DNA of 64,000 nucleotides from Chlorobiota bacterium (GTDB lineage Bacteria > Bacteroidota > Ignavibacteria > Kapaibacteriales > UBA2268). The notes under the pieces are model-generated. The model worked only from the letters and a program-made list of their open reading frames with translations. It did no database searches and had not been told where the DNA came from. The stretch lies in the NCBI GenBank assembly GCA_041596515.1, contig JBFHIJ010000006.1, positions 11,845-75,844 on the forward strand, read 5' to 3'. A program made the position numbers and the translations under genes. Numbering within the stretch: position 1 is the first letter of the stretch; each line of letters starts with the position of its first letter. Shown here piece by piece: positions 328-43,716 of the stretch.

Positions 328-405
328 TATTTTATCTAAATTTTTTAATGATTAGGCTTGCACTTCCATTTTTTTAGCAAAATTCTAGGCTCAAATTTTT
401 TCTAC

Positions 406-915: not shown

Positions 916-1194
916 TGAATGTCTATCTATTTTTTATGATACAAACTTTGTTTATTAACATATATCAAAATCAATATAACAAAAATAGTAAAAATTCAAG
1001 TATTATATATAATCTTTAAGTATTAATTATTTTACTGATTTCCTTCTTTTATATCGCCAAATGACAAATATTATAGATATCACCACACTTCGACTCACTT
1101 CATTCGCTCAGTGACCTTTTGATAAATTGCAACTAGAATAATTTAGTCTTTCGCAGTTGTCAAGTATTCCTTGTCAGCTGAATCAAGTCTAAAT

Positions 1195-7633: not shown

Positions 7634-9595
7634 ATGAAGCAATATTATCCATATAGTTTAATACTCTTTATTGGACTAATAGGTTCAATTATATCATGCA
7701 ATGCTGACTATAATGTAGACAATCATGATGCCAAAAAGTTACACACACAGAAAGGGAAAGATATGAAATACGCAGGGACTGTCAACGCACCGGACTTTCA
7801 GGATGGACTGGAATGGCTAAATACCGAAAAACCATTATCTATTAAAGAGCTGAAAGGCAAAGTTATTCTGCTTGATTTTTGGACTTACTGTTGTATAAAT
7901 TGCATACATGTGATGCCAGATCTGAAAAAGCTGGAAGAAGAGTTTGCTGATGAGCTGGTAGTCATTGGTGTGCATTCTGCTAAATTTGAAAATGAAAAGC
8001 TAACCGAAAACATAAGAGAAGCAATAATAAGGTATGAAATTGCGCATCCGGTAGTAAATGATAAAGATTTTAAAGTATGGAGGGAGTATGGGGCACGCTC
8101 ATGGCCTTCATTTGCTCTCATAAATCCAAGAGGTAAACTGCTGGGGATGACTTCCGGCGAAGGGATTTACTTAAAAATAAGAGATGTGATAGCTGATGTA
8201 ATAGCTGAGTTTGATGAGATTGGGGAGATAGATCGCTCTCCCCTTAATCTTGCATTGGAAAAAAACTCGAGACCTAAGTCACTATTAAGTTATCCCGGGA
8301 AAATCAGTTATGACCAAACTCATAAAATCTTATGGATTAGTGATTCAAATCACAACCGTATTTTAGGTATAGATGAAGATGGAAATCCTGAATATGTGAT
8401 TGGAACAGGTATAAGCGGAATGAAAGATGGTGCTTTTGATCAGGCTCAGTTTTTCAGACCGCAGGGCGTTTTCTATTCATCTGCCCAAAATGCAGTTTAT
8501 GTAGCGGACACTGAAAATCACTCAATACGCAAAATAGATCTCCAAGATGGAACAGTTACTACACTTGCCGGAACCGGTGAGCAGGGAGCTTGGGGTGAGC
8601 AGGGGGGTGATGCACTGACCGAGGAACTCAATAGTCCTTGGGACTTAATGCAGGTAGGTGATAGCCTGATTGTAGCCATGGCCGGCCCGCATCAAATATG
8701 GGCAATTGATTTGGAACAATCATTAAGTGGAATATACGCCGGTAACGGGCGTGAAGACATAATAGACGGAACTCGCAGTAACTCTTCGTTTGCTCAGCCG
8801 AGTGGGATAGCTTTCGACGGAAATAATTTCTACATTGCTGATAGTGAAGTTAGCGGCATTAGAAAAATAGATAGCCAATCCGGCAAGGTATCTACACTAG
8901 TAGGGCAAGGGCTATTTGAGTTTGGAGATGTGGACGGAAGCTTCCCTAAATCCAGACTTCAGCATGCTATCGGATGCACTTACCACGATGGATTAATATA
9001 TATAGCAGATACTTACAACCACAAGATTAAAGTGCTGGATCCTAAGACAAAGAAATTAAAATCTCTTATAGGAACAGGGGAGAGAGGATATAAAGATGGT
9101 AGTTTTGAAGATGCAATGCTTAACGAACCAAATGATGTGGAAGTAGTTGGCAATATACTATATATCACTGATACCAATAACGACTTGGTGCGAGTAGCAA
9201 ATCTAAATACTAAAGAAGTGAGCACTTTAAAAATCAATGCCAATAATAAGATGCAACTCAAAGAAAAGCTTAGCGAGGAGAAATTTATCGCAAAAGCAAT
9301 CAGTAACTTTAGAATAAATATTGATTTGCCGGAAAAGCTGAAATTTACAGAGGACGCTCCGGCATTATTCCGTTACTCCTTTGACGGAAGCAATTGGGAA
9401 AGCGCCGCCGAGCTAAGCGATATCAATATCGACCTAAGCGGCAGACCAAAACACCTTTGGTTGGACTACAGCATCTACTACTGCGAAAAAGACAAAGAAG
9501 CCAAATGCTACGTCGCCTTCGACAAAAAGAAACTATTATTAGAATATATAGATAGTGGCAAATCCGGCTATGAGATAGAGTTGATGGGTGAGTAG
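7634..9595 (+). CDS. thioredoxin-like domain fused to an NHL-repeat beta-propeller protein
   Basis: N-terminal redoxin-like region with WTYCCINC (CxxC). This is followed by repeated NHL-like blades (…YVADTENHSIRKID…, …YIADSEVSGIRKID…, …YIADTYNHKIKVLD…, …YITDTNNDLVRVAN…). Confidence 0.7.
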   Translation: MKQYYPYSLILFIGLIGSIISCNADYNVDNHDAKKLHTQKGKDMKYAGTVNAPDFQDGLEWLNTEKPLSIKELKGKVILLDFWTYCCINCIHVMPDLKKLEEEFADELVVIGVHSAKFENEKLTENIREAIIRYEIAHPVVNDKDFKVWREYGARSWPSFALINPRGKLLGMTSGEGIYLKIRDVIADVIAEFDEIGEIDRSPLNLALEKNSRPKSLLSYPGKISYDQTHKILWISDSNHNRILGIDEDGNPEYVIGTGISGMKDGAFDQAQFFRPQGVFYSSAQNAVYVADTENHSIRKIDLQDGTVTTLAGTGEQGAWGEQGGDALTEELNSPWDLMQVGDSLIVAMAGPHQIWAIDLEQSLSGIYAGNGREDIIDGTRSNSSFAQPSGIAFDGNNFYIADSEVSGIRKIDSQSGKVSTLVGQGLFEFGDVDGSFPKSRLQHAIGCTYHDGLIYIADTYNHKIKVLDPKTKKLKSLIGTGERGYKDGSFEDAMLNEPNDVEVVGNILYITDTNNDLVRVANLNTKEVSTLKINANNKMQLKEKLSEEKFIAKAISNFRINIDLPEKLKFTEDAPALFRYSFDGSNWESAAELSDINIDLSGRPKHLWLDYSIYYCEKDKEAKCYVAFDKKKLLLEYIDSGKSGYEIELMGE

Positions 9596-9735
9596 GTTGC
9601 TACAATGTAAGGAAAGTGTTGTTTTTATGTAGCCTCATATTTTATCAACATGCCGTACGAAATTTAAACTATTAATTAAATTATTTATAGTTATATTTGC
9701 TTATGTAGTTAAGCGTTTAGTTTATAAACGAGTTA
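9557..9735 (+). repeat. direct repeat copy 1: last 12 codons of the NHL gene plus ~140 bp downstream
   Basis: The 39-bp core GGCAAATCCGGCTATGAGATAGAGTTGATGGGTGAGTAG recurs at 11078 with one mismatch. The following ~140 bp recur there with roughly 70% identity. Confidence 0.7.
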
Positions 9736-9774
9736 TGTGTTTAATTAAGACGAACCCAAAGGACAAGATAAAAG

Positions 9775-10650
9775 ATGGAAATGCCAAAATTTCATGAGAC
9801 TTTCATTCCAATTTTAAAAGTGTTAGAAAATGGAGAAACTCTCCAAGCAAGAGAATTGTATAAAAAAGTAATCGCTCAATTCTATACGGAACTTTCAAAA
9901 GAGCAATTGGAAGAAAAAACAAAAAGTGGAGACCTTTTAATAATTAACAGGATCGCTTGGGGGAAGTCTTACTTAAAAAAGGGAGGATATATTGAATTCC
10001 CAAAAAGAGGATTTGTAAGAATAACAGAAAAAGGAAAAACTCAAACAACATCAGACTTGACTTTAAAACAAGTTGAAAGCTCTGATAATTACCTTGAATT
10101 TTACAATGAGGAAAACTCCCAAAAAGAATCGACTCCTTCAATAATTAAGAACGCATCACCACAAGACCTAATTGACGAAGGTTTTAATCAAATTGACATT
10201 CAGGTAAAAGATGAATTATTAGAAAAACTAAAGGAAATTGATCCATTCTATTTTGAGAAAGTTATTCTTATTCTTCTCAAAAAAATGGGATACGGTGATT
10301 TTGTTGAAACAGCAAAAACTGGAGATGGTGGAATAGATGGGATAATTAATGAAGATAAACTTGGATTGGATAAAATATACATTCAAGCTAAGCGATATGG
10401 AGAAAATAAAGTACGTGAAAAGGACATTCGTAATTTTATCGGAGCAATGAGTGGAGATACTCAAAAAGGTGTTTTCGTTACCACATCATCCTTTGATACA
10501 GGAGCAATTAAAAAAGCTCACGATGCTCATCATACAATTATCTTAATTGATGGTTTAAAATTGGTAGATCTTTTGCATCAATATAATGTTGGTATTCAGG
10601 TTAAAGCAGTTTATGAAGTAAAAGAGTTGGATAATGATTTCTTCGAGTAA
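9775..10650 (+). CDS. mrr: Mrr-family type IV (modification-dependent) restriction endonuclease
   Basis: N-terminal Mrr_N winged-helix region. C-terminal Mrr_cat PD-(D/E)xK core (GDGGIDGII...LDKIYIQAKRY). Confidence 0.75.
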   Translation: MEMPKFHETFIPILKVLENGETLQARELYKKVIAQFYTELSKEQLEEKTKSGDLLIINRIAWGKSYLKKGGYIEFPKRGFVRITEKGKTQTTSDLTLKQVESSDNYLEFYNEENSQKESTPSIIKNASPQDLIDEGFNQIDIQVKDELLEKLKEIDPFYFEKVILILLKKMGYGDFVETAKTGDGGIDGIINEDKLGLDKIYIQAKRYGENKVREKDIRNFIGAMSGDTQKGVFVTTSSFDTGAIKKAHDAHHTIILIDGLKLVDLLHQYNVGIQVKAVYEVKELDNDFFE

Positions 10651-10860
10651 AATAATTAATATGTAGATTTATGGCTAATCGATTGGAAATTTTAAAAAAA
10701 TACAGAAGAAATTTTCAAAGATGGAGATGCTAAATATGTTTATTGAGGTGTAGTATATTCGAATGAAAACAATTTCCGAGAAAACAAATCATCAAGTGAG
10801 TATTTTGTAAATGAGTTTAATATTAATATTAATATTATTGACAATATAGCTCTTTGTTGT

Positions 10861-11094
10861 ATGTTATGTGATGCAAGTAAAGGCTCGAAACTACTTGAGG
10901 ACTGGCTTGAAAGTGACTCCTGTAAGAAAAAAGAAATACTGGTTGATTCTGTTGCTGACGTTGTGAAAATGGTATTAAGAATCCATCGAAACGTTATAGT
11001 TAATATTCTGATTGACAATGAAGTTTTGTCCGACAAGATTAGAGCTGAAATTCAATTTGATAGCAATTTGGAAACCAGGCAAATCCGGCTATGA
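10861..11094 (+). CDS. hypothetical small ORF inside the Mrr cassette, possibly a gene fragment
   Basis: 77-aa ORF with no recognisable domain. It runs into repeat copy 2 in a different frame from the NHL gene tail. Confidence 0.2.
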   Translation: MLCDASKGSKLLEDWLESDSCKKKEILVDSVADVVKMVLRIHRNVIVNILIDNEVLSDKIRAEIQFDSNLETRQIRL

Positions 11095-11275
11095 GATAGA
11101 GTTGATGGGAGAGTAGAGAGGTTTTTTATGTGAGGTAAGTTTTGTTTTAAGATAGCCTAATATCCAATTTATTGATATGTTATACGTATTTTAAACGAGT
11201 AATGAAAATATATTTTGCTATATTTGCTTGTATAGTTAATCGTTTTATACCTTAAAACTGTTGTGCAAAAGTCGA
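11078..11275 (+). repeat. direct repeat copy 2 (displaced or duplicated NHL gene 3' end)
   Basis: Core is near-identical to 9557-9595 and would encode ...GKSGYEIELMGE* in frame. The flanking ~160 bp align to 9596-9735 with many substitutions. Confidence 0.7.
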
Positions 11276-11288
11276 TACTGGAGGTATT

Positions 11289-12122
11289 ATGGACAAGTTT
11301 TTTAATACTTTACATACTACATTTTCTTATGAAGCATTTTTAAATACAATAATTAACTTTCTTCCTAATTTAATTGCTGCATTATTCATACTATTTGCTT
11401 TTCATATTTTATGGAAGCTACTAAATAAATTTTTAAATGTGTTATTTAAAAAAATATCAATAGATGGAACATTTCAAAACTTTATTAACAATATTACCAA
11501 AAATATTCTTTTATTAATTGGAATAATTACTGCACTATCTCAAGTAGGTATTAATACTGGTTCTATGTTAGCAAGTTTAGGTGTCGCAGGTTTAACTATT
11601 GGTTTCGCTGCAAAGGATGCATTATCGAATATTATTTCCGGGTTATTTATTTTTTGGGACAGACCTTTCGTAATTGGTGATTTAATTGAAATAAATAATC
11701 AATATGGTAAAGTTGAAGAAATCACGATGAGGTCAACAAGACTTATTACAGTTGATGGTAAAATGTTATCAATACCTAATTCACAAATTTTAAATTCCAT
11801 GGTTGCCTCATATACAAATTTCCCTAATTTGCGAATTGATATCGATTTCACTGTTTCTTCAATTACAAATCTTAACAAGTTACGTATGTTTTTATTTGAA
11901 TTAGTTCAAGATAATGAGATTTATCTCTCTAAGCCTGAACCTGAAATTGTATTAAACAAAATTAATGACTATAATATCGAATTATTGTTTAGAGTATGGA
12001 TAAAAAATGAGAAAGAGCATGTAAAAATCAGATTTAAATTAAGGGAAAAAATACTCGATAAATTGATTGAAAATAAAATTGAAATGCCGTATGAAACTAT
12101 AAATATTGTAATGGATAAATAA
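11289..12122 (+). CDS. mscS: small-conductance mechanosensitive channel (MscS family)
   Basis: TM helices followed by the conserved MscS beta-domain (GDLIEINNQYGKVEEITMRSTRLITVDGKMLSIPNSQI). Confidence 0.75.
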   Translation: MDKFFNTLHTTFSYEAFLNTIINFLPNLIAALFILFAFHILWKLLNKFLNVLFKKISIDGTFQNFINNITKNILLLIGIITALSQVGINTGSMLASLGVAGLTIGFAAKDALSNIISGLFIFWDRPFVIGDLIEINNQYGKVEEITMRSTRLITVDGKMLSIPNSQILNSMVASYTNFPNLRIDIDFTVSSITNLNKLRMFLFELVQDNEIYLSKPEPEIVLNKINDYNIELLFRVWIKNEKEHVKIRFKLREKILDKLIENKIEMPYETINIVMDK

Positions 12123-12546
12123 TCGTAGCAGTTTAGACTTCCGCAGAACACAGCATAGCTGCTGCACTTTCTGTAGTTGCTTGGCCTTTAACACATTTGC
12201 TTCCGAGGCACTGCGGCAAAGGTCGGCTATGCTTGAACGTTACATGTAAGCTTGAAAATCAAGAAATGATAAAAATCATAAGTATCATAAGTATTTTATT
12301 CACATTTGGATTCCATGGTTTAAAAATTATGTATTACTTGTATCATCTCCAATGCAATGAAATTGCAAAATTGCATTGCATCAGATATTAAAATACAAAA
12401 TTGATAGTTAATATAGTGAAGTAATGTGAGTGTCATTTTGATATTACTAAGCAACTCCAGCACCTCACCAATAAAGAATTACTACATTCCAATTTAAAAT
12501 AAAAAATTATATATTCGGCTAATTGCTTGAATGTGGCAATAATTCT

Positions 12547-12586
12547 GCAAAAAAAAAGACGCAATTACAATGCGTCTTTTTCAAAA
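12547..12586. terminator. bidirectional intrinsic terminator
   Basis: Stem aagacgca/tgcgtctt flanked by A9 on one side and T5 on the other. It lies just 3' of the minus-strand gene ending at 12612. Confidence 0.55.
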
Positions 12587-13412: not shown

Positions 13413-14132
13413 AGATATTACCTCTTCTGTAGAAATTGATTTTATTTCTGCAATTTTTTCTGCCACATATTTCACTCTTTCAGGTTCATTCCTCTTACCT
13501 CTGAAAGGTACAGGAGTCATATATGGAGAATCTGTTTCTATCATAATTTTGTCTAAGGGGGCGGCTCTTACGACCTCGCCCAAAGTAGATTTCTTAAACG
13601 TAATATTTCCCGTAAAAGAGACCATGAAGCCCAAATCTAATGCTTGTTTTAATACATTTACATCAGACGAAAAGCAATGCAGTACGCCTTTTAAAGTGCC
13701 GTCTTGCATATCTTTTAACGTGCTAATCAAGTCTTCGTCAGACTCTCGGTTATGGATAATTACAGGCAGATTTAACTCTTTTGCCAACGCTAATTGATTT
13801 TTAAAAGCACTGATCTGCACATCTTTTGGAGTAAAGTCATAATAGTAGTCAAGCCCAATTTCGCCAATAGCTTTTACATTGTCATCATTTGCTATCTTTC
13901 TAATATTATCCGCAACTACTTTATTATACTCAGCTGCATTATGCGGATGAACTCCCAGACCGCAGTATATATTTTTGTTCTTTTGCGCTAATAATATTAC
14001 TCTTTCAAAATCTTTTGGTTCAATTCCGGGAATAATTATAGCTTCCAAACCACTGTCCATAGCTCTGCGTATAACTTCCTCTCTATCCTGATCGAATGCT
14101 TCAGTATCTAAGTGTGCGTGAGTGTCTATCAT
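13374..14132 (-). CDS. tatD: TatD-family metal-dependent hydrolase/DNase domain; the ORF has no own stop and reads through into the downstream barrel
   Basis: MIDTHAHLD start, then GEIGLDYY, HNRES, ETDSPY and C-terminal ...NAKHLFNL, which together are the full TatD motif set. The 3' end coordinate is approximate; it marks where TatD homology ends. Confidence 0.75.
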
Positions 14133-14219
14133 AAGTCCTATATTCTATATTATAAATAATAACAAATATACTCATTATTGCAGAAAAAATTGTAGTAATG
14201 GAATAATGTAAATACTTTA

Positions 14220-14957
14220 TCAGACGGATTTAGACATTATTCTGGAGATTGATTCTATAAGCTGTTTATTAATAGCAGTCAAACTGTTTTCTATATTTCC
14301 CTGATTGATATGGCAATCATGCAATATATTTTTTTCAGTTAATATGCTTGAAAGAGCCAGTGTGGAACCGCAAACCGAATCATGTTCGCCGGATGCTAAG
14401 TAAATATGTCGTCTGCTTTTTAAGAAAGTCATCCAATATGGATCAGTCAGGTTAGGCAGGAAGTGAACGGGAGAGTTATAGTAACAGTTATCATCAAAAT
14501 ATTCGCCGGTTGATATAGATAAATCATATTGACCACTAACGGCAATAGTACCAATAAATATATCAGGTCTTCTAAAAAAAGTATTAGCTGCGTGGTAGGC
14601 TCCTTCCAGAGCTCCTGCAGTTATAATAGGTACGGGAGTGCCACAGCTATTAAAAATGTAAGGCAATACTTCAGAAGTCAGAAACAAATTAAAGTCGAGC
14701 AACATTTCTGATTTTTCATTTAAAGCACGCGAATTCTTCCAAATGTGATTGGATGGGTTTGCAACTGAGTATATTTTGCATTTTCCTTTTTTCAAAAGAG
14801 GCAAAAGCATTTCAATCAAGCCGTCTTTCTCAGACTGTAAAATATTATCTTCGCCTGAAGAAAATAGTACAATAGCTACACCGCATTTTCCATAGACAGC
14901 GATGTCAGTATTACCACCATAAAAATGGCTATCAATATGTTTAATCTCTCGTTTCAT
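14220..14957 (-). CDS. hypothetical protein, possibly an alpha/beta-hydrolase/esterase-like fold
   Basis: 245-aa ORF lying just upstream of tatD on the same strand. No clear GxSxG motif. Confidence 0.35.
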   Translation of the reverse strand: MKREIKHIDSHFYGGNTDIAVYGKCGVAIVLFSSGEDNILQSEKDGLIEMLLPLLKKGKCKIYSVANPSNHIWKNSRALNEKSEMLLDFNLFLTSEVLPYIFNSCGTPVPIITAGALEGAYHAANTFFRRPDIFIGTIAVSGQYDLSISTGEYFDDNCYYNSPVHFLPNLTDPYWMTFLKSRRHIYLASGEHDSVCGSTLALSSILTEKNILHDCHINQGNIENSLTAINKQLIESISRIMSKSV

Positions 14958-15202
14958 AGTAACATCAATATACTTATCACAGCTGATAATATCAAACTAA
15001 AATATGTAACGTGTAGAAATATATACGGATCTATGGGCTAAGCTAATATGTGTCAATATTAAAAATTTTGTATATCAACAAAGAATAAACCACGAAAGAC
15101 AACTAAAGGTAATTAGTAAAAGTTTACGATTAAATTGTTATCATTGTGGAAAACTCTAACTTGTTTATTCCCAAAGCGTTTGGAATATTCTAATTATTTT
15201 CC

Positions 15203-35653: not shown

Positions 35654-36101
35654 AGATACATTAAAGTTAGTTTGTGCTGAACTGAAGCAGAGCGGCAAGA
35701 AAGTAGTTTTTACTAATGGCTGTTTTGACATTCTGCATATTGGACACGTAACATATCTCGAAAAGGCAGCACGACTTGGAGATGTGTTAGTTATTGGTCT
35801 TAATAGTGACGAATCTGTTTCGAAGCTAAAAGGGCCGAGTCGTCCGGTGAATAAAGAAAGTGATCGTGCCGGTGTGCTTTCAGCATTGAAATTTGTCGAC
35901 TATGTGACAGTATTTGGTGAAGAGACCCCCTTTGAGCTTGTGTCTGCCATTATACCCGATGTTATAGTAAAAGGTGGTGACTATACACCTGAAACTATTG
36001 TGGGTGCAGACATTGTTACTCACAATGGGGGAGAGGTCGCCGTTATACCGTTAGTAGAAGGCAAGTCGACAACAAATATCATCAATAGAATCAATGAGTA
36101 A
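35640..36101 (+). CDS. hldE: D-glycero-beta-D-manno-heptose-1-phosphate adenylyltransferase (RfaE domain II; hldC-type)
   Basis: Cytidylyltransferase motif [14 protein letters not shown] separate ORF that overlaps the kinase ORF by 14 nt. Confidence 0.8.
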
Positions 36102-36673
36102 TGATTACTACAGTAAATATAGATCAAGAATTTAAAGATTTGAATATGCAGGAGTCCGGGCTTAGTTCTTATGAGTTTGACTCCTGCATCTTTAAAGATT
36201 GCGATTTTTCAAAATCTGACTTCAATGGTGCAGTCTTTAAAGATTGTACATTTCATAACTGCAACTTAAGTATGCTCAGCCTTAAAGATACTTCTTTTAA
36301 AGAGGTAGAGTTTTATGACTGTAAGATGCTTGGGATAAACTTCCAGTCCATAAATGATTTTCTACTTTCTTTTAAGTTTGAAAACTGCATACTTCGGATG
36401 TCCTCATTTTATAACTTAAATATAGCAGAAACTGAGTTTATTTCATGTGATTTGCAAGAAGTGGACTTTGTTAGTGCTAATCTGAGTAAAGCTGTGTTTG
36501 AGAGCTGTGATCTTAAAAAAGCCATCTTTACCCAAACCAATCTCCAGAAAGCTGATCTGACTACTGCAATCAACTATGCCATCAATCCCAGCGAAAACAA
36601 TATAAAAAAAGCAAAATTCTCTTCAATTTCTATTGTGGGGTTACTTGCACATTTAGATATTGAAGTGGTTTAG
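36101..36673 (+). CDS. pentapeptide-repeat protein
   Basis: Tandem five-residue repeats of the A(D/N)LxX type (FKDCDFSKSDFNGAVFKDCTFHNCNLSM...). Confidence 0.7.
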   Translation: MITTVNIDQEFKDLNMQESGLSSYEFDSCIFKDCDFSKSDFNGAVFKDCTFHNCNLSMLSLKDTSFKEVEFYDCKMLGINFQSINDFLLSFKFENCILRMSSFYNLNIAETEFISCDLQEVDFVSANLSKAVFESCDLKKAIFTQTNLQKADLTTAINYAINPSENNIKKAKFSSISIVGLLAHLDIEVV

Positions 36674-36697
36674 AGCATCCTTCTCCAAACATACTAA

Positions 36698-36736
36698 CCT
36701 TCACCCAAACGCTTGCGCTTCTGCCAAGATTATCGG
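36698..36736 (-). repeat. degenerate copy C of the pbpC 3'-end repeat
   Basis: CCTTCACCCAAACGCTTGCGCTTCTGCCAAGATTATCGG matches copy A across CTTGCGCTTCTGCCAAGATTATCGG. On the minus strand it would encode ..DNLGRSASVWVKV.. with no stop. Confidence 0.6.
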
Positions 36737-36744
36737 AATTATTT

Positions 36745-37401
36745 TTACGCATTTCCATTCACAGATAAACTATAATATGCTTTTTTATCTAAGTTTATTA
36801 TTAAATTGAAGTGACACTTACCGCCATCAAAAACAAAAAGTAGAGTATTTCTATATTTTCCCCAATTGTTACCACAAAAACAATTCACCCAAACTTCTTT
36901 TTCATCATTTTCATTTGTATAAGGTACTAACTGTCTTTTATAGTCTGACAAATTTATTTGAATACTAGATTTTTCTTCACTTGATTCCAAAACTACATTG
37001 TATTGTTTTTGATATTGTTCAACAATGGAAGTATTATATTCTTTGATACTTCTTTTCAATATTACTTCCAAAAGATTTATCTCTTCATCATTCAGAGTAG
37101 TAGATTTGAATTTTGGATTATTTGGACCAAAAGGATAAGGATTGATTACATCATAATCCAGTATCACATATTTAGAAGTATCGGGTTGTGAAATTAACAA
37201 ATCATTGTCACTTACATTTACCTTATGAAGGATTGGACGATGTTCTATTTTTGAAGAATCAGACTTTGCTAATAACACATCAAGAATACTATTTTCTACA
37301 TTATTAGAAACAGCTTGATTTTTTTCACTCTTTTCTTTTTCTTGGTAGTCGCATGCTATTACCAAAACAAAACACAATACTAATAAGATTGATTTCATCA
37401 C
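36745..37401 (-). CDS. lipoprotein of unknown function (cargo of cassette 1)
   Basis: MMKSILLVLCFVLVIACDYQ lipobox. 218 aa. Confidence 0.5.
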   Translation of the reverse strand: MMKSILLVLCFVLVIACDYQEKEKSEKNQAVSNNVENSILDVLLAKSDSSKIEHRPILHKVNVSDNDLLISQPDTSKYVILDYDVINPYPFGPNNPKFKSTTLNDEEINLLEVILKRSIKEYNTSIVEQYQKQYNVVLESSEEKSSIQINLSDYKRQLVPYTNENDEKEVWVNCFCGNNWGKYRNTLLFVFDGGKCHFNLIINLDKKAYYSLSVNGNA

Positions 37402-37470
37402 TATTAATCCAGATTATAAATATATTTTAAGCTAATATACAATTTTACATTGTAATATTGAATTAATTCC

Positions 37471-37536
37471 CTAAAACACTGTCAGTTTCACCCATCCACT
37501 TGAACTTCTGTCAAGATTATCGGTGCAGGTGATTTT
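37471..37536 (-). repeat. copy B of the pbpC 3'-end repeat
   Basis: On the minus strand it encodes KITCTDNLDRSSSGWVKLTVF*, against the pbpC tail KITCTDNLGRSASIWVKVTVF*. Confidence 0.7.
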
Positions 37537-37676
37537 ATTATTGTAATTATCATACAATTATATTTTTCTATCTTGCAGTATATTCTTATATTATAGTTAT
37601 AATTGTTTTAACTTTTTAAAAATACTAATCTACTTTAATTAATAAGTATATTTAGAAATTTGAGAGATTTACTCTT

Positions 37677-39227
37677 ATGATTTTCAAGCATTATACCAAT
37701 TATTTTGATTCGAATTCGATTGCATCCAAGTATATCATTCTTATACTGACATCGCTTTTATTACTTTTGGTATCAAATACTTACCTAAAATCACAACAGC
37801 TAAAACCAATAGACCGAGATTCCAATTACATCGGAAGAATTTATATTTATTTGGACATGAACAGCTGCGCTGCTTATGTGCATAATGTAAATCATGTTGA
37901 AAAAATGACAAAAAAGTATAATCTGGAACGAGTTGTTTTCCTGCAACAGGAAGCCCCCGGCGATGTAGATTCTATAAGATCTAAGCAAAAGTGGCAATCA
38001 AAATGTATCGCTGATGAATATCAAATATTTAGAGAATACTATGCTTTTAGAAATGTTCCCGGATTTTTATTATTGAATTCAGAAGGTAAAGAAATAATCA
38101 ATACTAGACTTGACGGTGCTCATATTAAATTTCCTGAATTAAAGTCACTCTTAGATTCGTTATCTAAGAATGTAAAAAAATCAAATCCATTAAAAGTACT
38201 TTCTAAAGTCAAAGTTCTGCGTAATGGAAAAAGCAAACGTTCCGGCTTCCATAAATTTGGGACTTATGATAATATCAATAATGTTACTTATATGCGGTTT
38301 AACGGCTCGTATTCTTTATGGAAAATAGATTCGACTGGTGACGCTGAAATACTAACTTCGAAAAAATCTCATCCAATTCTGGATATTAAAAGAAAATCTT
38401 ATTATGGTATGTATATGAATGGGAGTTGTGACACCATTATTTCCCTATTTAAGGGTGAATATTACACCAAAGAAAATAAGCTATTTTTATATGATATTGA
38501 AGAGAACAAGTATACTTATAACACATTAGATATATCGAAGATTTCAGATACTACATTCATTTCTAATTCTTATACATACTTAGATGATAAAATATTTATC
38601 TCATATGACACTTGGTATAACACAAAACCTGGTGGAAATAAAGACTGGAAAAGCTTCTATATTTTTGATTTGAACGGCAAATATGAAACATCTTTTGGTG
38701 AGCCATCCGGCTTCTTTAGAGAAAATTTTCTGGGACGTAGATACATTGATTATATTCAGAGTGACGGGAAGCAATATTACTCTTTGCAGAGACTGCAAGA
38801 TACTATTAGAGTTTGGGATAAAGAGTATAATTTTCTAAAATATATTCCTATTAAAATGGGTAAAGCTTATAACGAAGTACTTGCTAAGATTGAAGAAGAA
38901 ATAGCTCAATGTAAAACTCCTGAAGATTATTCTAAACTTAATTTACATACTGCAATTATCAGACATTTTGTTTATGATGAAATTAGCAAAACTTTCATGG
39001 TTTCATATGATACTGAAATTATTAATGCCAATAAGCAAATAGAAGAAAATACATATTATACTTTCTTCGATATCAATGGAAACAGAATATTTGAGGATGA
39101 TATAAAAGTAAGAACAAACTCAAAACCTTACTATTTCAAAAACGGAATCATTATGTCCGCAGAATCTAATTCTAAAAACGAAGTGGAAATTGTTAAATAT
39201 CAGATTCCAGCAGAAAAGTTGAAATAG
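37677..39227 (+). CDS. hypothetical membrane-anchored protein (cargo of cassette 2)
   Basis: 516 aa with an N-terminal TM segment. No domain recognised. Confidence 0.45.
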   Translation: MIFKHYTNYFDSNSIASKYIILILTSLLLLLVSNTYLKSQQLKPIDRDSNYIGRIYIYLDMNSCAAYVHNVNHVEKMTKKYNLERVVFLQQEAPGDVDSIRSKQKWQSKCIADEYQIFREYYAFRNVPGFLLLNSEGKEIINTRLDGAHIKFPELKSLLDSLSKNVKKSNPLKVLSKVKVLRNGKSKRSGFHKFGTYDNINNVTYMRFNGSYSLWKIDSTGDAEILTSKKSHPILDIKRKSYYGMYMNGSCDTIISLFKGEYYTKENKLFLYDIEENKYTYNTLDISKISDTTFISNSYTYLDDKIFISYDTWYNTKPGGNKDWKSFYIFDLNGKYETSFGEPSGFFRENFLGRRYIDYIQSDGKQYYSLQRLQDTIRVWDKEYNFLKYIPIKMGKAYNEVLAKIEEEIAQCKTPEDYSKLNLHTAIIRHFVYDEISKTFMVSYDTEIINANKQIEENTYYTFFDINGNRIFEDDIKVRTNSKPYYFKNGIIMSAESNSKNEVEIVKYQIPAEKLK

Positions 39228-39236
39228 AAAAATCTC

Positions 39237-39306
39237 CTAAAACACAGTCACCTTCACCCATATACTTGCGCTTCTGCCAAGATTATCGGTGCAGGTGATT
39301 TTTTTT
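39237..39306 (-). repeat. copy A of the repeat, which is the functional 3' end of pbpC
   Basis: Encodes the last 22 codons of pbpC plus its stop. It shares the core AAGATTATCGGTGCAGGTGATTTT with copy B. Confidence 0.7.
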
Positions 39307-41513
39307 GTGCTGCTTGTTTCTGGAGTGTAAAATATCTTTTCGTCTGACTTGCAGCTACCTACTTTCAGATTATCTACAAACCAGGTCATTTCTTTTGCAT
39401 CCTGCGCAATTACGGCGGAAAGTTCTAATTTGAACTGCCCTTTTTCTGCAAGATATTCCTGATTTGCTATTGGTGAAGTAATCGAAGGATTATTTATTGT
39501 GGAAAAACGTGTGCATTTTGGATTATGCGGTAAGCGTTCTTTGTATTTAATATTTTGACTTTTGTAAAAATCAATCAATTCAGGCGGATAGCTTTCTGAC
39601 TGTATAGTTTTATAACCTTTCTCAGGCAGACAGTCCAAACAGTATTCATATTTACCGTCTTTAGAAACAAAAATATCACTGCTGTGAGTACACTCTTCAT
39701 TTGACGAAACAAAAGGAATATAGCCATCAGTCACTTTAGAGCAGTATTTTCCGGCTTTTTTACCTGTTACACTACAAACTTCCCTTTTCGGTATATCTAA
39801 TAACTGTAGCTTACCTGAGGGGTCTATTTTTTCTAATATCCTAAATATATCAAATAGTAGAGGAGTTGCTACTGATGCTCCTGTGAGAGTCGCAGCACCT
39901 TTGTTATCAAAGTTGCCAGCCCACACTGCTACTGTATATTTCTTAGCAAACCCTATACTCCAAGCATCTTTCCTTCCATAAGAGGTACCTGTTTTCCAGG
40001 CAATTTCCGGTAAATCTTTAGTATATTGATAAGACAGTGGATAATCGGGTCTTTCCAATTTGGTAAGCATTTTTGCTACCATCTCACTTGCAAGCGGATT
40101 GAAAATTGTATCTAATTTATTAGCAGTAGTATCTTTAAAATAGATTGGCTTAGAGTACACGCCTCGGTTTGCTATACATCTGTATAGACCGCAGAGTTCT
40201 TCCAGTGAAACACCGCAAGCACCAAGCACAGCCGAAAGTCCCATATCCTTCTTGTTTTTACTGATTTTTTCGAAGTGCATTTGTGTCAATTTTGAAGCAA
40301 AATCATCTTTGCTGAGTTGATTTAGCAGATATACCGCAGGGATATTAAGAGATTTTGCCAAGGCATCTTCAGCATTAACCCATCCGGAAAAAGTTTTATC
40401 AAAGTTATCAGGTGAATATAATCCAAAATCCATAGGTATATCTAATATTTTAGTCTTAGGAGTAATGATTCCTTCTTCTATCGCCATCATATAAACTACA
40501 GGCTTTAATGCACTTCCCGGTGAGCGTATAGCTTTTACTCCGTCTACTTGCCCGGCATGATCATAATCGAAGAAGTTGCTCGAACCGACATAAGTTAATA
40601 CTTCGCCTGTGCTATTATCCATAACTACAACTGCAGAATTATAAATATCACGATTTGCCAAGCCTTTGGTATATGTATAACATAACTTTTCGATAGGCGA
40701 CTGCATTTTTAAATTTATTGTTGTGTTTAGATTGTAGCTCTGTGAGTGCATATTTTTAATGTTTTCGCATAAGTGGAGTGCGTATTTAGGTCTGTCTCTA
40801 CGTTTAGACCTAAATTCTTCGTTCATCGCAGTTTTAATTCTATCTTTAGCAAATGTACCAGCAGAGCTATGATAATCAAGCCAGAATAGTTTCTCTTCGT
40901 TTATTGCGGTATTATTTTTACCTATTTTAAACTTATTCGGATTATTTGGAATAAAGGATAAACAGACTGCTTCTGCCAGAGATAAGTTCATGGGGGCCTT
41001 GCCAAGGAAAAACAAAGAGGCTGATTTGACACCCTCCACATTCCCGCCAAAGGGAATCCGATTCAGGTACATAGTCAGTATCTCATCTTTGGAATAATGC
41101 AGCTCCAACTGCATTGCACGAAAGACTTCAACAATCTTATTAATAAATGTACGGTTTTTGGGTTCTAAAAGGCGGGCAAGCTGCATGGTAATAGTAGATG
41201 CACCTGAAACGATATCACCGGAAGTAATATTTTGATAAGCCGCTCGGGCAATAGCCAAAGGATCAAATCCAAAATGATAATAGAAGCTCTCATCTTCTTT
41301 TGCAATAATAGCTTTTCGTAAATCAACTGAAATTTCATCCAAATTAGCTTCGAGCCGCCATTTGTCATGGGTGTTTAGGAATGTCGCCAGCACATACCCA
41401 TTAGTATCATAAACCGTAGTAGAATAATCCTTAGCAGGACGAAACGGAAACGCTAAGTCCAGGATAAAGAACAGAGCAAGCGCTGCTATTACTATTATGA
41501 TTGCTTTTTTCAT
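39237..41513 (-). CDS. pbpC: penicillin-binding protein 1C (transglycosylase/transpeptidase)
   Basis: GT51 motifs (EDESFYYHFG, ASTITMQLARLL), then a transpeptidase SxxK/SxN/KTG(T/S) set (PGSALKP, KTGTS) and a C-terminal PBP1C-specific domain. Start placed at MKKAIIIVIAALALFF. Confidence 0.8.
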   Translation of the reverse strand: MKKAIIIVIAALALFFILDLAFPFRPAKDYSTTVYDTNGYVLATFLNTHDKWRLEANLDEISVDLRKAIIAKEDESFYYHFGFDPLAIARAAYQNITSGDIVSGASTITMQLARLLEPKNRTFINKIVEVFRAMQLELHYSKDEILTMYLNRIPFGGNVEGVKSASLFFLGKAPMNLSLAEAVCLSFIPNNPNKFKIGKNNTAINEEKLFWLDYHSSAGTFAKDRIKTAMNEEFRSKRRDRPKYALHLCENIKNMHSQSYNLNTTINLKMQSPIEKLCYTYTKGLANRDIYNSAVVVMDNSTGEVLTYVGSSNFFDYDHAGQVDGVKAIRSPGSALKPVVYMMAIEEGIITPKTKILDIPMDFGLYSPDNFDKTFSGWVNAEDALAKSLNIPAVYLLNQLSKDDFASKLTQMHFEKISKNKKDMGLSAVLGACGVSLEELCGLYRCIANRGVYSKPIYFKDTTANKLDTIFNPLASEMVAKMLTKLERPDYPLSYQYTKDLPEIAWKTGTSYGRKDAWSIGFAKKYTVAVWAGNFDNKGAATLTGASVATPLLFDIFRILEKIDPSGKLQLLDIPKREVCSVTGKKAGKYCSKVTDGYIPFVSSNEECTHSSDIFVSKDGKYEYCLDCLPEKGYKTIQSESYPPELIDFYKSQNIKYKERLPHNPKCTRFSTINNPSITSPIANQEYLAEKGQFKLELSAVIAQDAKEMTWFVDNLKVGSCKSDEKIFYTPETSSTKKITCTDNLGRSASIWVKVTVF

Positions 41514-41631
41514 CTTGGTAAAATAGGAAATTAGTGCGGAATCAGGAAATATAATACGAGCTATTTGCATATAAAAAGTGCCCATATTCTAAAATACGAG
41601 CACTTCATTTAGCAAGGTATGTGGGATGTAA

Positions 41632-43587
41632 TTATTTTAAGCTATTAGAGTAAATAGCCCAAGTATCTAAAGTAGGCATGCCTTCTTCTGCCTGCATAAC
41701 TACAATATACTTAGTACCATCAGAGTTAAAGAAGCAATATTTTGCATCTGGTTTGAAAAACTTATACCCATTGTTCCCGTCTGGAATAGAGAACTTCGGT
41801 AGGTTAATTTCTTTTTCAAAATTCAGATAATTTGCATCAAATATTCTTAATTTCTCAGCTAATTTTGGAGAGTAATAATCATTTGTAGCAAATGCCGCAC
41901 AAATCTTATTAGATTCAGAGGAATGATCAACACAGTTTAGCGTGCCAGTTCCTTCTAAGACACCTGCATATTTAAAGTCATGTTCTTGAGATGTAGACAA
42001 CCTATATACATTTTTAGACTTTGTAAATACTCTTTCTCCATCTTCACTATACCAAAAATCTCCACCTGTGTTGACATTTTGACCGTAATTACTGCTATAA
42101 AGGAATTTTATCGAATCTGTACTAACATCATATTTATATAAATTTGATGACGACGAGCCTTGGTTAGTGAGAAGGTACTGACCAGTTGGATCTAATTTTA
42201 TCATTCCTTGCGAATAATAACTTCCACCATTTTGAGTTTTTTCTAATCCGGTAGAAAGGTCTAAACCAAATACTCCATCATTGTAGCTATTACTAGATGT
42301 AAAATATGCCCATTTTCTATCTGACATTACTATATCATAACAATCAACAGAAACAGTATAAAATCCCAATTCTGTTTTATTATTTAAATCCAAGTAACTG
42401 ACAGCTGCATTATGCCCTACCACTGCATATTTACCATTTGGAGATACCGATAAACATTTCGGTGTTTTATTAATTTGGATAGATTCCATTGTCTTATTTT
42501 CTGTGTTGCAGATAAGCAATTTATGCGGATCTGCAGTTAGAATTAGTAGTTTTTCTAATTTGTCATTATATTCTGCGTCAATTACTTCCCCTTCTATCAT
42601 CCATTTGGATTTATCTACATGGATAACTTTGACAGGTAAGTTAGATACAGTATAATTTTGAGAATTTTTTATTTCTAAATTGAAATTATTTACACCTGAT
42701 ACGAGCTTGCTAGTTATGGCATTTACATCGATTTTAACAGAATCACTTACCGAGATACTGCCTGAATTAGGACTACAATCCAATGCTTTAGATTCATTTC
42801 CTATAGAATAATTAAATTGTGTATTTCCGACATTTTTCAAGTAAAATGACTTTGTTGTTTCATTGATATTAAAATATAAAGTATCTAGTCCTGGCACTGC
42901 TTGCTCTATTTCCGGCACTTCTGCAGTAACTTTAATTTTAGTACTATCTTCATAATTATTATAGTACATAATTAACTCGCCTTCAAGTGTTCCTAAAGGT
43001 TGATTTGATCTGTCTATATAAACTGTAATATCTCGGCTATCTGAAGGGTATATACTTAAACCGTTTGAACTTAAAACAATCCATTCATTTCTCGAAAAAA
43101 TACTTCCGGATAATACACCTTTACCTTTATTTCTAATTGTCAAGCGTTGTTGCATTTGTTGCTCATTAAAGTGGATTGATTCCGGTTCGAACACTGGATC
43201 AGGATATTGATTTACATACACTTCTATTTGAGATGAGCATATTCCTGCTCCATCAGACATTATAGACAATATACCTGAAAGATGTCCTGTCTGAACTATT
43301 TCTGTATTTATTGTACCCTTAATTTCAATCATATTTTCTGATATTTTCCCTTCTTCTTGAGAAAGATTCAACCATTTTGGCTTAGATGTAACTTGCCAAG
43401 TATGAGAACTTTTAGGCTGAGTTGACAGATAAAAAGTAATAGTATCTCTGTCATTTGCTGCTATTTGTTGTGGAGCCATAATAATTTGCGATTCGACAAC
43501 AGGAGCTACAGAATTGTCATCGTCATCTCCACAAGCTGCGAAAAATAATATTCCAAATAATATAAAAAGCAAATAATAAAACTTCAT
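41632..43587 (-). CDS. secreted lipoprotein of unknown function, probably a beta-propeller/Ig-like multi-domain protein
   Basis: LFFAACGDDDDNS lipobox. 651 aa, beta-rich. Confidence 0.45.
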   Translation of the reverse strand: MKFYYLLFILFGILFFAACGDDDDNSVAPVVESQIIMAPQQIAANDRDTITFYLSTQPKSSHTWQVTSKPKWLNLSQEEGKISENMIEIKGTINTEIVQTGHLSGILSIMSDGAGICSSQIEVYVNQYPDPVFEPESIHFNEQQMQQRLTIRNKGKGVLSGSIFSRNEWIVLSSNGLSIYPSDSRDITVYIDRSNQPLGTLEGELIMYYNNYEDSTKIKVTAEVPEIEQAVPGLDTLYFNINETTKSFYLKNVGNTQFNYSIGNESKALDCSPNSGSISVSDSVKIDVNAITSKLVSGVNNFNLEIKNSQNYTVSNLPVKVIHVDKSKWMIEGEVIDAEYNDKLEKLLILTADPHKLLICNTENKTMESIQINKTPKCLSVSPNGKYAVVGHNAAVSYLDLNNKTELGFYTVSVDCYDIVMSDRKWAYFTSSNSYNDGVFGLDLSTGLEKTQNGGSYYSQGMIKLDPTGQYLLTNQGSSSSNLYKYDVSTDSIKFLYSSNYGQNVNTGGDFWYSEDGERVFTKSKNVYRLSTSQEHDFKYAGVLEGTGTLNCVDHSSESNKICAAFATNDYYSPKLAEKLRIFDANYLNFEKEINLPKFSIPDGNNGYKFFKPDAKYCFFNSDGTKYIVVMQAEEGMPTLDTWAIYSNSLK

Positions 43588-43716
43588 AAATCTAATCCTT
43601 AAAATGTATCAATAAGTAAAATCAAAGATAGAAAAAATGTATATTTATTGCAATCAATAAATAACAATAATATACGATAATGCAGAATTATTATCAGAAT
43701 TATTAATAATTATCGA

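Follow-up and report, generated by a model that had tools for sequence, protein, structure and literature searches.

The end of pbpC, the gene for penicillin-binding protein 1C, recurs beyond the gene itself, with one gene lodged between each copy and the next, and this raises the question of how a piece of coding sequence came to be repeated around unrelated genes. A first-pass annotation of the window (the whole 64,000-nucleotide stretch of DNA that was analysed) had read the array as the footprint of site-specific integration into the 3′ end of a protein-coding gene. We examined this reading by comparing the window with four related Candidatus Kapaibacterium genomes, of which L001 is the sister at the pbpC locus.

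Copies of the pbpC tail and the genes between them

The pbpC gene lies on the minus strand (39237..41513) and carries the Pfam domains Transgly, Transpeptidase and BiPBP_C. It is taken here in its 758-aa form, starting with MKKAIIIV (the mechanical ORF extends to 41585); its orthologues also have 758 aa and are 94, 84 and 81% identical to it. Three copies of its tail, all in the same orientation on the minus strand, were confirmed. Copy A (39231..39305) comprises the last 22 codons of the gene, the stop codon and 6 nt past it, and translates as KITCTDNLGRSASIWVKVTVF*. Copy B (37465..37539) is 85% identical to A over 75 nt and, as had been claimed for the reading frame at 37471, could still encode KITCTDNLDRSSSGWVKLTVF*, including the stop. 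Copy C (36687..36736) is 88% identical to A and 76% to B over 50 nt; it reads DNLGRSASVWVKVSMFGEG, and its stop codon is gone. As the annotation had described, these copies bracket a 516-aa gene (between A and B) and a 218-aa lipoprotein gene (between B and C). Common to all three copies is CAAGATTATCGG (CCGATAATCTTG in the sense of pbpC); the extension TGCAGGTGATTTT is confined to A and B. Two exact occurrences of the 24-mer AAGATTATCGGTGCAGGTGATTTT were counted in the window, against none in 100 dinucleotide-preserving shuffles. The 12-nt core CCGATAATCTTG (39278-39289 in copy A) is unchanged in 9 of 9 copies from four genomes, the non-coding copies included.

Copy C adjoins the end of a convergent pentapeptide-repeat gene (36101..36673, plus strand; Pfam Pentapeptide families), a conserved neighbour that in L001 directly adjoins the second tail copy. 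Conservation of the flanks of the pbpC locus is limited to the window and L001. Each related locus holds two tail copies, against three in the window, and the repeats are found only in genomes with cassettes; relatives at 52% identity have neither cargo nor repeats. Within genomes, the sequences of A and B co-vary, which points to gene conversion.

The first cargo gene (37677..39227, plus strand) is convergent with pbpC and encodes a 516-aa protein with an N-terminal signal anchor. Its GC content is 30.2%. The protein had no match in Pfam, NCBIfam, PADLOC or PDB sequences, and its single-sequence structure model was unusable (pLDDT 37). Orthologues in L001, L002 and L003 (96, 91 and 59% amino acid identity) show a divergence in step with that of pbpC, and in each of the four genomes of the genus two tail copies flank the gene. 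This genus-wide arrangement of pbpC, the 516-aa gene and a second tail indicates that the insertion is old and fixed; judged from these alignments, the 516-aa cassette is not a recent mobile unit.

The tail has a second property. In copy A, a hairpin (39249-39298) is followed by eight T residues on the plus strand (39299-39306); the DNA folds at −14.4 and −13.8 kcal/mol (z −2.9 and −3.4) and the RNA at −26.8 (z −3.7). A stable GC-containing hairpin and a T-run behind a stop codon are features of an intrinsic (rho-independent) terminator, and copy A is probably a bidirectional terminator of pbpC and the convergent 516-aa gene. The same hairpin is retained in all A copies and in the B copies of L001–L003, that of L001 having gained a perfect 9-bp outer stem, while the fold of copy B in the window is no better than that of shuffled sequence. 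Moreover, the boundaries of the repeat unit are those of the hairpin plus T-run, and in L001, L002 and L003 the copies stand exactly behind convergent genes. The extra copies may have been retained because the repeat looks like a terminator for such genes, and selection on the hairpin alone could explain the conservation of the repeat. The annotation had foreseen that the similarity might be confined to a low-complexity, terminator-like motif. Half of this holds, the repeat being a coding tail as well as a terminator-like hairpin with a T-run; a low-complexity terminator and nothing else was rejected, since the coding tail is real and its frame is kept even in the alien copy described below, with termination retained as a second function. 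No tRNA, tmRNA or Rfam family was found in the window, and a known RNA gene beneath the repeat was therefore also rejected.

The 218-aa cassette and its empty site

The second cargo gene (36745..37401, minus strand; GC 27.9%) encodes a predicted 218-aa lipoprotein with the lipobox VIAC. Its structure model is confident and matched only generic cystatin/NTF2-like folds, an α+β fold that is the one predicted for its C-terminal domain. Like the 516-aa protein, it had no match in Pfam, NCBIfam or PADLOC. The gene belongs to a 787-bp segment (36737..37523, minus strand) that is present in the window and missing from L001, with the order, in the sense of pbpC, core, alien tail, 63-nt spacer, 218-aa gene and 8 nt. 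Two blocks of the alignment between the window and L001, 41541-37487 and 36736-28448, both align to a single L001 copy (13991-14027), which equals the left part of B joined to the right part of C, the intervening 787 bp missing. Both junctions of the cassette fall inside the 12-nt core CCGATAATCTTG. The adjacent flanks are 96–97% identical to L001, with no imported, divergent recombination tract around the cassette. The comparison with relatives suggested by the annotation thus yielded a precise empty site for the 218-aa cassette, whereas the 516-aa gene and the second tail are conserved in the genus. The 218-aa insertion is probably strain-specific and took place in the window's own lineage; the L001 arrangement could equally have arisen by deletion between the 12-nt repeats. 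The predicted circle junction of the excised cassette is ...GCGTAAAAATAATT + core + ACAGAAGTTCAAG....

Copy B is a chimera. Its left arm (37524-37539) and core (37512-37523) run on from resident sequence, and its left flank equals that of copy B in L001. Its right part (37465-37511) matches the other copies at only 27–34 of 42 positions, with 8/42 differences from A and 15/42 from C. Copy C, in turn, consists of the core (36725-36736) and what was the right half of the resident second copy; it matches the right part of copy B in L001 at 37/42 positions, and the downstream flank is identical. Although divergent, the right part of B in the window has kept an intact frame and a stop codon, ending in DNLDRSSSGWVKLTVF* (nucleotides ACAGAAGTTCAAGTGGATGGGTGAAACTGACAGTGTTTTAG), as well as a compensatory pair in the inner stem. 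This suggests that its evolution as a genuine pbpC tail took place elsewhere, and that the target was not freshly duplicated. By this pattern of matches, the 218-aa cassette brought the right part of B with it as an alien pbpC tail, in agreement with the claim that the incoming element carries a replacement 3′ end, here one that preserves the frame.

A cassette with its own divergent in-frame tail argues against a target-site duplication. A transposon was rejected as the source of the repeat, the right parts of B and C matching at only 27/42 positions despite flanks that are 96–97% identical to L001; neither a transposase nor terminal inverted repeats were found. The identity available for the event was 12 nt (19 with one mismatch), which is too short for efficient RecA recombination. 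The annotation had further supposed that each newcomer displaces the old tail outward. The 218-aa cassette, however, lies in the distal copy and not at the functional end of pbpC, and so a simple outward-push order is not the most parsimonious one.

A second array behind a thioredoxin-like/NHL-repeat gene

The same architecture had been claimed for a locus with an Mrr gene, and this was borne out: tail repeats bracket Mrr, one relative (L010) has an empty site and another (L011) has the Mrr unit with its tail. The last 39 nt (9557-9595) of a thioredoxin-like/NHL-repeat (Trx/NHL) gene (7634..9595, plus strand) recur at 11078-11116 with 38/39 identical positions, and about 150 nt of downstream intergenic DNA are repeated as well, at ~78% identity. 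The Mrr unit (9557..10794, plus strand) comprises tail copy 1, the leader IG1 (9596 to ~9746) and an Mrr type IV restriction gene (9775-10650). A remnant block (10966..11265, plus strand) comprises the 3′ end of a 399-aa gene (10966-11091), tail copy 2 (11078-11116) and the leader IG2 (11117 to ~11265), with mscS (11289-12122, plus strand) downstream. In the sister L010, the whole block 9597..12575 (plus strand), containing Mrr, an HNH-like scrap, the 399-aa gene remnant, tail 2, mscS and 450 nt of non-coding DNA, is missing, and the Trx/NHL gene and tatD are 119 bp apart. The GC content is 31.5% for Mrr and 25.5% for mscS, and all the cargo genes of the two arrays (25.5–31.5%) are AT-richer than the core ORFs (37.0 ± 2.3%).

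The Mrr unit is 91.7% identical to positions 13857-15097 of the distant species L011, against 72.6% for the core genes of the same two genomes, and it starts at the same tail position in both. By these identities, the Mrr unit was transferred horizontally between species, tail included. The remnant of the 399-aa gene matches the 399-aa protein of L011 (tblastn, 93% over 42 aa), and window 11040-11108 is 100% identical to L011 13819-13887; the same junction between this gene and the tail is present in the two species. The 399-aa protein had no domain match and was rejected as a hidden recombinase, looking mostly α-helical by eye and showing no recombinase motifs. The Trx/NHL tail of the window matches distant L011 at 38/39 positions and sister L010 at 33/39, and looks replaced. 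In L011, the Trx/NHL gene is 90–98% window-like over its final 260 nt and ~72% upstream of them, which marks a recombination breakpoint. The cargo downstream of this gene differs in every genome, and the far flank is not conserved. The extension of the repeat by ~150 nt into intergenic DNA, together with the breakpoint in L011, indicates that homologous recombination shapes these arrays.

The annotation had reported no integrase in the 64 kb, and none of the recombinase Pfam families was found in the ORFs of the window, by direct scan or through annotation via synteny tables. The window and the 10 kb around the site in five related genomes yielded no tyrosine or serine recombinase, or fragment of one, and no integrase-bearing element using either tail site. 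Recombinase domains are likewise missing from inside the cassette units, which hold cargo ORFs only. A degenerate core-plus-tail pattern matched only three related species among the GTDB species genomes and had no match in JGI metagenomes or IMG/VR; the locus-2 tail pattern had no match, and no further copy of either tail was found in these three collections. Exact-protein look-ups with the 218-aa, 516-aa and Mrr proteins gave matches only in sample SRR29257459. No motif common to the pbpC and Trx/NHL loci was evident. Mobilisation in trans and a general mechanism, both put forward in the annotation, remain conjecture because neither a recombinase nor further copies were found.

Origin of the tail repeats

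The explanation that we prefer, and to which we give about an even chance, is that site-specific integration into the 3′ ends of pbpC and the Trx/NHL gene left the tail repeats as attL/attR-type scars, the incoming DNA carrying a replacement gene end, and that the units are now integrase-less relics resembling cis-mobilizable elements (CIMEs). The joining by a recombinase and the order of events are what we infer from the arrangement; on the best reading, the units were later shuffled by recombination. A unit with the 516-aa gene would have entered the pbpC tail in the ancestor of the genus, duplicating ~95 nt. The duplicated stretch would also have served as terminator hairpin and T-run for the convergent genes, and we propose that selection retained both copies for this reason, with occasional homogenisation by gene conversion. 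Later, probably in the lineage of the window, the 787-bp unit (the 218-aa gene and a divergent tail) would have recombined with the distal copy inside CCGATAATCTTG, splitting the distal terminator into copies B and C.

Several observations argue for integration: the precise presence or absence of the 218-aa cassette with both junctions in an invariant 12-nt core; the alien tail of copy B with its intact frame; the one-sided homology of copy C and of tail 2 at the second locus, both of which begin at a sharp edge and continue as far as the end of the gene, as would be expected if the element restores a 3′ end; the mere 12 nt of identity at the 218-aa event and the AT-rich cargo; the empty site in L010 and the excess of identity of the Mrr unit over the core (91.7% vs 72.6%) with the same tail start; and the confinement of the repeats to cassette-carrying genomes. 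The failure to find a recombinase in the window and within 10 kb in the five genomes, an integrase-bearing element or further tail copies counts against it, and the two loci, having no common motif, would need two different recombinases. The reading first proposed is supported in part, by the empty site, the replacement tail and the abrupt copies, while the 516-aa cassette turned out to be old and fixed genus-wide.

A purely local origin, in which tandem duplication or slippage copied the terminator and tail on the spot so that every convergent gene had one, and nothing foreign was integrated, is very improbable. The agreement of the repeat limits with the hairpin and T-run would fit it, as would the placement of copies exactly 3′ of convergent genes in three relatives; however, the cargo between copies is unrelated and AT-rich, the right part of B is an outlier tail with no recent derivation from A or C, and relatives at 52% identity lack both cargo and repeats. 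The alien tail and the foreign composition of the cargo have largely refuted this account. Improbable too, if less so, is an active, integron- or pdif-like system in which a chromosomal recombinase encoded elsewhere excises and inserts single-gene cassettes in trans, with the 3′-terminal hairpins of housekeeping genes as att sites; this would amount to integron-like capture without attC, with Mrr-type cassettes circulating among Kapaibacterium species always behind the same gene. The compact one-gene units with ORF stops 3–8 nt from the junctions speak for it, as do a conserved imperfect hairpin as attachment sequence, two such loci within 64 kb, the movement of the Mrr unit between species and a core unchanged even in non-coding copies. 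It is at odds with a 516-aa cassette that has been immobile since the genus diverged, with cassettes oppositely oriented relative to the repeat, and with two loci that share no motif; on inspection there is no attC-type R″/R′ core (GTTRRRY) or dif-like dyad, and beyond the three pbpC-tail copies in the window and two per related locus, the public collections searched held no others.

A route independent of any recombinase is possible, although we lean against it. The regions 3′ of pbpC and the Trx/NHL gene would then be integrase-less hotspots, where DNA was added by illegitimate or microhomology joining, or by a Campbell-type single crossover of a circularised fragment with a homologous gene tail, and spread from strain to strain by homologous recombination, the direct repeats being a by-product retained as terminators or promoter leaders. 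The failure to find recombinases in the window and within 10 kb of the site in the five genomes speaks for this route, together with the breakpoint in the L011 Trx/NHL gene, the long (~190 nt), diverged repeats of the second locus with their intergenic DNA, the cargo that varies there in every genome and the gene conversion suggested by A/B co-variation; the minimal mobile element concept, in the description given in PMC3082526, provides a precedent. Yet the 218-aa junctions lie in just 12 identical nt at the very edge of homology, no imported tract reaches into the flanks, and double-crossover exchange does not produce bracketing repeats. In addition, two species share the 399-gene/tail junction as well as the point where the Mrr unit begins, which fits a defined site better than random joints.

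If site-specific integration is the true explanation, very small cargo units, with defence genes such as Mrr among them, land at the 3′ ends of genes and not only at tRNA genes in an uncultivated lineage of the FCB group, and a displaced gene tail can be retained for a second job as the terminator of a neighbour gene. If no recombinase exists, the loci are instead a clean natural example of foreign genes added beside essential genes without damage. Short displaced gene tails are also a cheap marker of old insertions and variable hotspots in metagenome-assembled genomes without recognisable mobile-element genes. The array looks like the scar of an insertion at a gene 3′ end, a known kind of event, which refines known biology and introduces no new principle.

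Among known systems, integrons and CALINs resemble these arrays in having single-ORF cassettes separated by hairpin-forming repeats of ~60–100 nt, with no recombinase within the array. Here, however, there are two cassettes only, with opposite orientations (the 516-aa and 218-aa genes are on opposite strands) and their own upstream regions (spacers of 137 and 63 nt), and a housekeeping gene's coding end makes up the repeat; this class was rejected, as inspection of the sequence and folds revealed no attC core sites (RYYYAAC ... GTTRRRY) on either strand and the window has no recombinase. A Xer/dif-like site was also discarded, no dyad arms being visible in the repeat. The minimal mobile elements of Neisseria (Saunders & Snyder 2002; Snyder et al. 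2007, as described in PMC3082526) have different whole-gene cassettes between conserved genes, no recombinase, and exchange by homologous recombination. Our loci resemble them in part: no recombinase was found here either, the cargo behind the Trx/NHL gene varies but its far flank is not conserved, and exchange is marked by the L011 Trx/NHL breakpoint but by no divergent tract around the 218-aa cassette. As far as that description goes, minimal mobile elements are not bracketed by copies of flanking gene ends, and a 12-nt junction with an alien tail is unexpected from flank-mediated exchange.

Tycheposons are stacked at tRNA genes in Prochlorococcus with partial tRNAs between them (10.1101/2020.12.28.424599). 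Older elements are displaced outward there as new ones integrate at a single site, with partial target copies between cargo and degenerated remnants, a pattern that our arrays resemble; but tycheposons target tRNA genes and carry tyrosine recombinases, whereas our repeats are tails of protein-coding genes, and a tycheposon or other tRNA-targeting island was rejected given that the window has no tRNA, tmRNA or recombinase. Prophage e14 (and phage 21) in E. coli icd, with its displaced icdC 3′ fragment (PMC13626634), is similar in that the incoming DNA provides a slightly different functional replacement 3′ end and leaves the old end as a pseudogene fragment on the far side. Unlike the units at pbpC and the Trx/NHL gene, which have no recombinase, e14 (15 kb) encodes its own integrase and is excised upon SOS induction.

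A further comparison is with the CIMEs and accretion arrays left by ICEs and IMEs at gene 3′ ends, such as those of ICESt1/ICESt3 at fda in Streptococcus thermophilus (PMC5704250). Our units differ in being far smaller (0.8–1.8 kb, one gene each, one of them fixed genus-wide), in that the second insertion at pbpC lies in the distal repeat and not in the functional gene end, and in that no cognate integrase-bearing element was found for either site (within 10 kb, in five related genomes). Like CIMEs, they are devoid of integration and transfer genes, stand in tandem at one site and leave the target gene intact. They are bracketed by copies A, B and C at pbpC and by tails 1 and 2 at the Trx/NHL gene, and they show empty-site polymorphism, L001 being without the 787-bp unit whose junctions lie in CCGATAATCTTG and L010 without the Mrr/mscS block.

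Copies of the pbpC tail and the genes between them

The pbpC gene (mechanical ORF 39237-41585, minus strand; the 758-aa form common to orthologues starts at 41513) encodes a protein with transglycosylase, transpeptidase and BiPBP_C domains. Its tail occurs three times in the same orientation: copy A (39231-39305, minus strand) comprises the last 22 codons, the stop codon and six further bases, copy B (37465-37539) is 85% identical to A, and the partial copy C (36687-36736) is 88% identical to A and 76% to B. Copies A and B translate as KITCTDNLGRSASIWVKVTVF and KITCTDNLDRSSSGWVKLTVF, and C retains DNLGRSASVWVKV, its stop codon being gone. Chance does not account for the shared 24-mer, for which 100 shuffles gave not a single match. 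A 516-aa ORF (37677-39227, plus strand), convergent with pbpC, was located between A and B, and a 218-aa lipoprotein-like ORF (36745-37401, minus strand) between B and C, which confirms the report of the first-pass annotation that the pbpC tail is repeated around two genes.

We found pbpC homologues with 94, 84 and 81% identity in MAGs labelled Candidatus Kapaibacterium or 'uncultured bacterium' (loci L001, the sister, L002 and L003). All three show the same order, pbpC, the convergent 516-aa gene and then a second pbpC-tail copy, and the block including both genes is 93.8% identical to L001 and 85.5% to L002, the 516-aa gene diverging in step with pbpC. In contrast, two relatives at 52-53% identity (L004 and L005) have other neighbours and lack both the 516-aa homologue and the tail repeat. 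This distribution indicates that the A/516/B arrangement had a single origin before the genus diversified and has been immobile since. The low GC content of the 516-aa gene (30.2%, versus 37.0 ± 2.3% for core ORFs) nonetheless marks it as acquired DNA. No family assignment was found for its product, and the single-sequence structure model was unusable. The protein exhibits a faint local match to the Trx/NHL protein (7634-9595), in the thioredoxin-fold part of the latter (33% over 42 aa, pairwise E 4e-4), and in L002 and L003 the two genes are no more than 4 kb apart; they may be distant paralogues.

The surroundings of pbpC differ in other ways. In L004 (7094-12749), the relative at 53% identity, a WYL regulator and a Pnkp/Hen1 RNA-repair cassette come after pbpC and tail repeats are absent, so the region downstream of pbpC is variable outside this genus too. 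Just upstream (41542-43716), the window encodes a 651-aa BACON-domain protein, likewise present in L002 and L003, in place of which L001 has an oppositely oriented ApeA/HEPN defence-type gene (8614-9972); no noteworthy flanking repeats were observed at this gene difference.

The 218-aa cassette and the repeat as a putative terminator

L001 contains only two tail copies, the second of which directly adjoins the pentapeptide gene. Alignment of the window with L001 gave two blocks (41541-37487 and 36736-28448), both ending on one single L001 copy. At base level, this copy consists of the left flank and left arm of window B followed by the right part and right flank of window C, and therefore 787 bases (36737-37523) are extra in the window. 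Both junctions fall inside CCGATAATCTTG, a 12-mer invariant in 9 of 9 tail copies from four genomes. The part of B after this core is the outlier among all copies (27-34 of 42 positions match the others); despite this divergence its frame and stop codon are intact, and the inner hairpin stem retains a compensatory pair. Just beyond the junctions, identity to L001 is 96-97%, and comparison of these flanks revealed no divergent recombination tract accompanying the cassette. A fresh target-site duplication is ruled out by the divergent right part of B beside such flanks; the combination also speaks against an imported tract and indicates that the cassette arrived with a pbpC tail of its own, one that had evolved as a real tail in another lineage. 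Copy C has no pbpC homology upstream of the core, and its one-sided homology, from the crossover to the gene end, is the same as that of elements rebuilding a gene 3' end.

A single gain by the window would be a more parsimonious account of the 787-bp difference than at least two losses, yet precise loss between cores would be easy. The order proposed in the first-pass annotation, in which a newcomer displaces the old tail outward, would need the 218-aa cassette to be older than the genus-wide 516-aa cassette, and we judged it less likely. The search with the 218-aa protein found no close homologue and more than 1000 remote ones, none with an assigned function, and its confident structure model shows only a generic cystatin/NTF2-like C-terminal domain.

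Copy A forms a long imperfect hairpin (DNA fold −14.4 kcal/mol, z −2.9; other strand −13.8 kcal/mol, z −3.4; RNA fold on the 516 strand −26.8 kcal/mol, z −3.7). Its pbpC-strand flank is GUGUUUUAGG; the A8 flanking it on that strand corresponds to T8 at 39299-39306 on the 516-gene strand, where the stop codon of the 516-aa gene (39227) lies ahead of the hairpin and T8. All A copies retain the same hairpin, as does copy B in L001, L002 and L003, and each copy bearing it lies directly behind a convergent gene (for B, the pentapeptide gene of L001 or the 209/224-aa gene of L002/L003). The B copy of L001 is under no coding constraint, and a G-to-T change there gives it a perfect 9-bp outer stem. 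Only window B and C, the two halves left by the 218-aa cassette, are no more stable when folded than shuffled sequence. The repeat unit extends from the A-run to a point shortly beyond the stop codon, and the putative terminator has these same limits. The pbpC tail repeat thus appears to double as a putative bidirectional terminator, a coincidence that would explain why a displaced gene tail survives genus-level divergence. The first-pass annotation had set a mere terminator-like motif against its own reading; the repeat is terminator-like, but it is a coding tail as well. Variants common to A and B within a genome (CGTT in L001, TATA in L002, TCTT in L003) indicate occasional gene conversion; A and B are 98% identical over 53 nt in L001, 97.5% over 81 nt in L002 and 96.6% over 59 nt in L003.

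The Trx/NHL gene and the Mrr unit

At the second locus, the last 39 nt of the Trx/NHL gene (7634-9595) recur at 11078-11116 (38/39 identical), and a leader of ~150 nt downstream of the tail is also repeated with ~78% identity. The copies enclose the gene for Mrr, a type IV restriction enzyme, and mscS comes after the second one. In the sister (L010), the Trx/NHL gene is followed by 119 bp and then tatD, window 9597-12575 being absent. L011 is a more distant species, with 72.6% nucleotide identity to the window in core genes. Its Trx/NHL tail (11927-11974) has a second, perfect 48-nt copy (13857-13904) downstream of two genes, of 168 and 399 aa, and this copy leads into the leader and Mrr gene known from the window; window 9557-10794 is 91.7% identical to L011 13857-15097. 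In the window, tail 2 is fused to what remains of the 399-aa gene, 42 codons, and the junction is 100% identical to L011 over 69 nt.

The Trx/NHL tail of the window is nearer to L011 (38/39) than to the sister (33/39), suggesting that it arrived together with the cassette. The L011 gene (10001-11965) is a mosaic relative to the window (~72% over positions 1-1700, 90-98% over the last ~260 nt), and contains a clear breakpoint that indicates inter-species homologous recombination. Since the tail repeats occur only in the two cassette-carrying genomes, this locus supports the horizontal movement of a unit beginning with a gene tail; it also shows these arrays to be reshuffled by ordinary recombination.

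Between Mrr and the 399-aa remnant, a short ORF fragment (10845-10920; …CCMLCDASKGSKLLEDW…) resembles the C-terminal motif of HNH nucleases; it looks like a scrap of another defence-type gene, and the region like a junkyard or hotspot. Downstream of mscS, ~450 nt of non-coding DNA (12123-12575) with palindromes (e.g. GCAATGAAATTGCAAAATTGCATTGC) and a terminator-like hairpin (12548-12580) are absent from L010. The sister also lacks the 169-aa membrane-protein gene (406-915) of window 344-1194, having 97 bp there; its 72%-identical L011 homologue (12074-12580) has Trx/NHL tail 1 on one side and the 399-aa gene on the other. In L010, a 178-bp direct repeat (824-1001 and 1456-1632; 92%) corresponds to the 5' 'head' of a 159-aa gene, which is 92% conserved in L011 (5332-5487), where the body of the gene is another one; this may be a head-swapping gene family.

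Origin of the tail repeats

Neither the scanned window ORFs nor the neighbourhoods annotated in five related genomes showed a recombinase domain, and the window contains neither tRNA nor Rfam family. Apart from the three relatives, no GTDB species genome gave a further copy of the pbpC or Trx/NHL tail, nor did JGI metagenomes or IMG/VR. Near the right end of the window, where complete ORFs are few, is a 300-nt direct repeat (62634-62933 and 63180-63479; 74% identity, 546-nt spacing) without an Rfam match.

The most likely explanation of the repeats at both loci, with about an even chance of being right, is that they are relics of site-specific integration. We favour it because the 12-nt crossover core is fixed, homology is one-sided, the tail is a replacement, the empty site is clean, and the identity available at the 218-aa cassette junctions is too short for RecA-mediated exchange. 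A core of ~12-14 bp is typical of Bacteroidota NBU-type integrases. The five supporting features are all hallmarks of elements integrating into gene 3' ends, as exemplified by e14 in icd (PMC13626634) and by ICE/IME/CIME arrays (PMC5704250). The total absence of recombinases from the regions searched and the homologous recombination seen at the second locus point instead to the main rival, a recombinase-independent origin with illegitimate or Campbell-type joining first and homologous recombination afterwards, in the same spirit as minimal mobile elements (PMC3082526); we consider it possible but rather doubtful. The stronger claim of the first-pass annotation, an active cassette system mobilised in trans, is improbable; its interpretation overall is supported in part, as regards the 3'-end integration scars. 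A purely local duplication of the tail is essentially excluded, being contradicted by the divergent tail brought by the 218-aa cassette and by the foreign cargo.

Worth keeping are the attachment sequence that serves also as a putative bidirectional terminator and the Mrr defence-gene unit that crossed species boundaries to the same gene tail. The loci are a further instance of a known structure, that of integrase-less units with flanking att-like repeats at the 3' ends of protein-coding genes.
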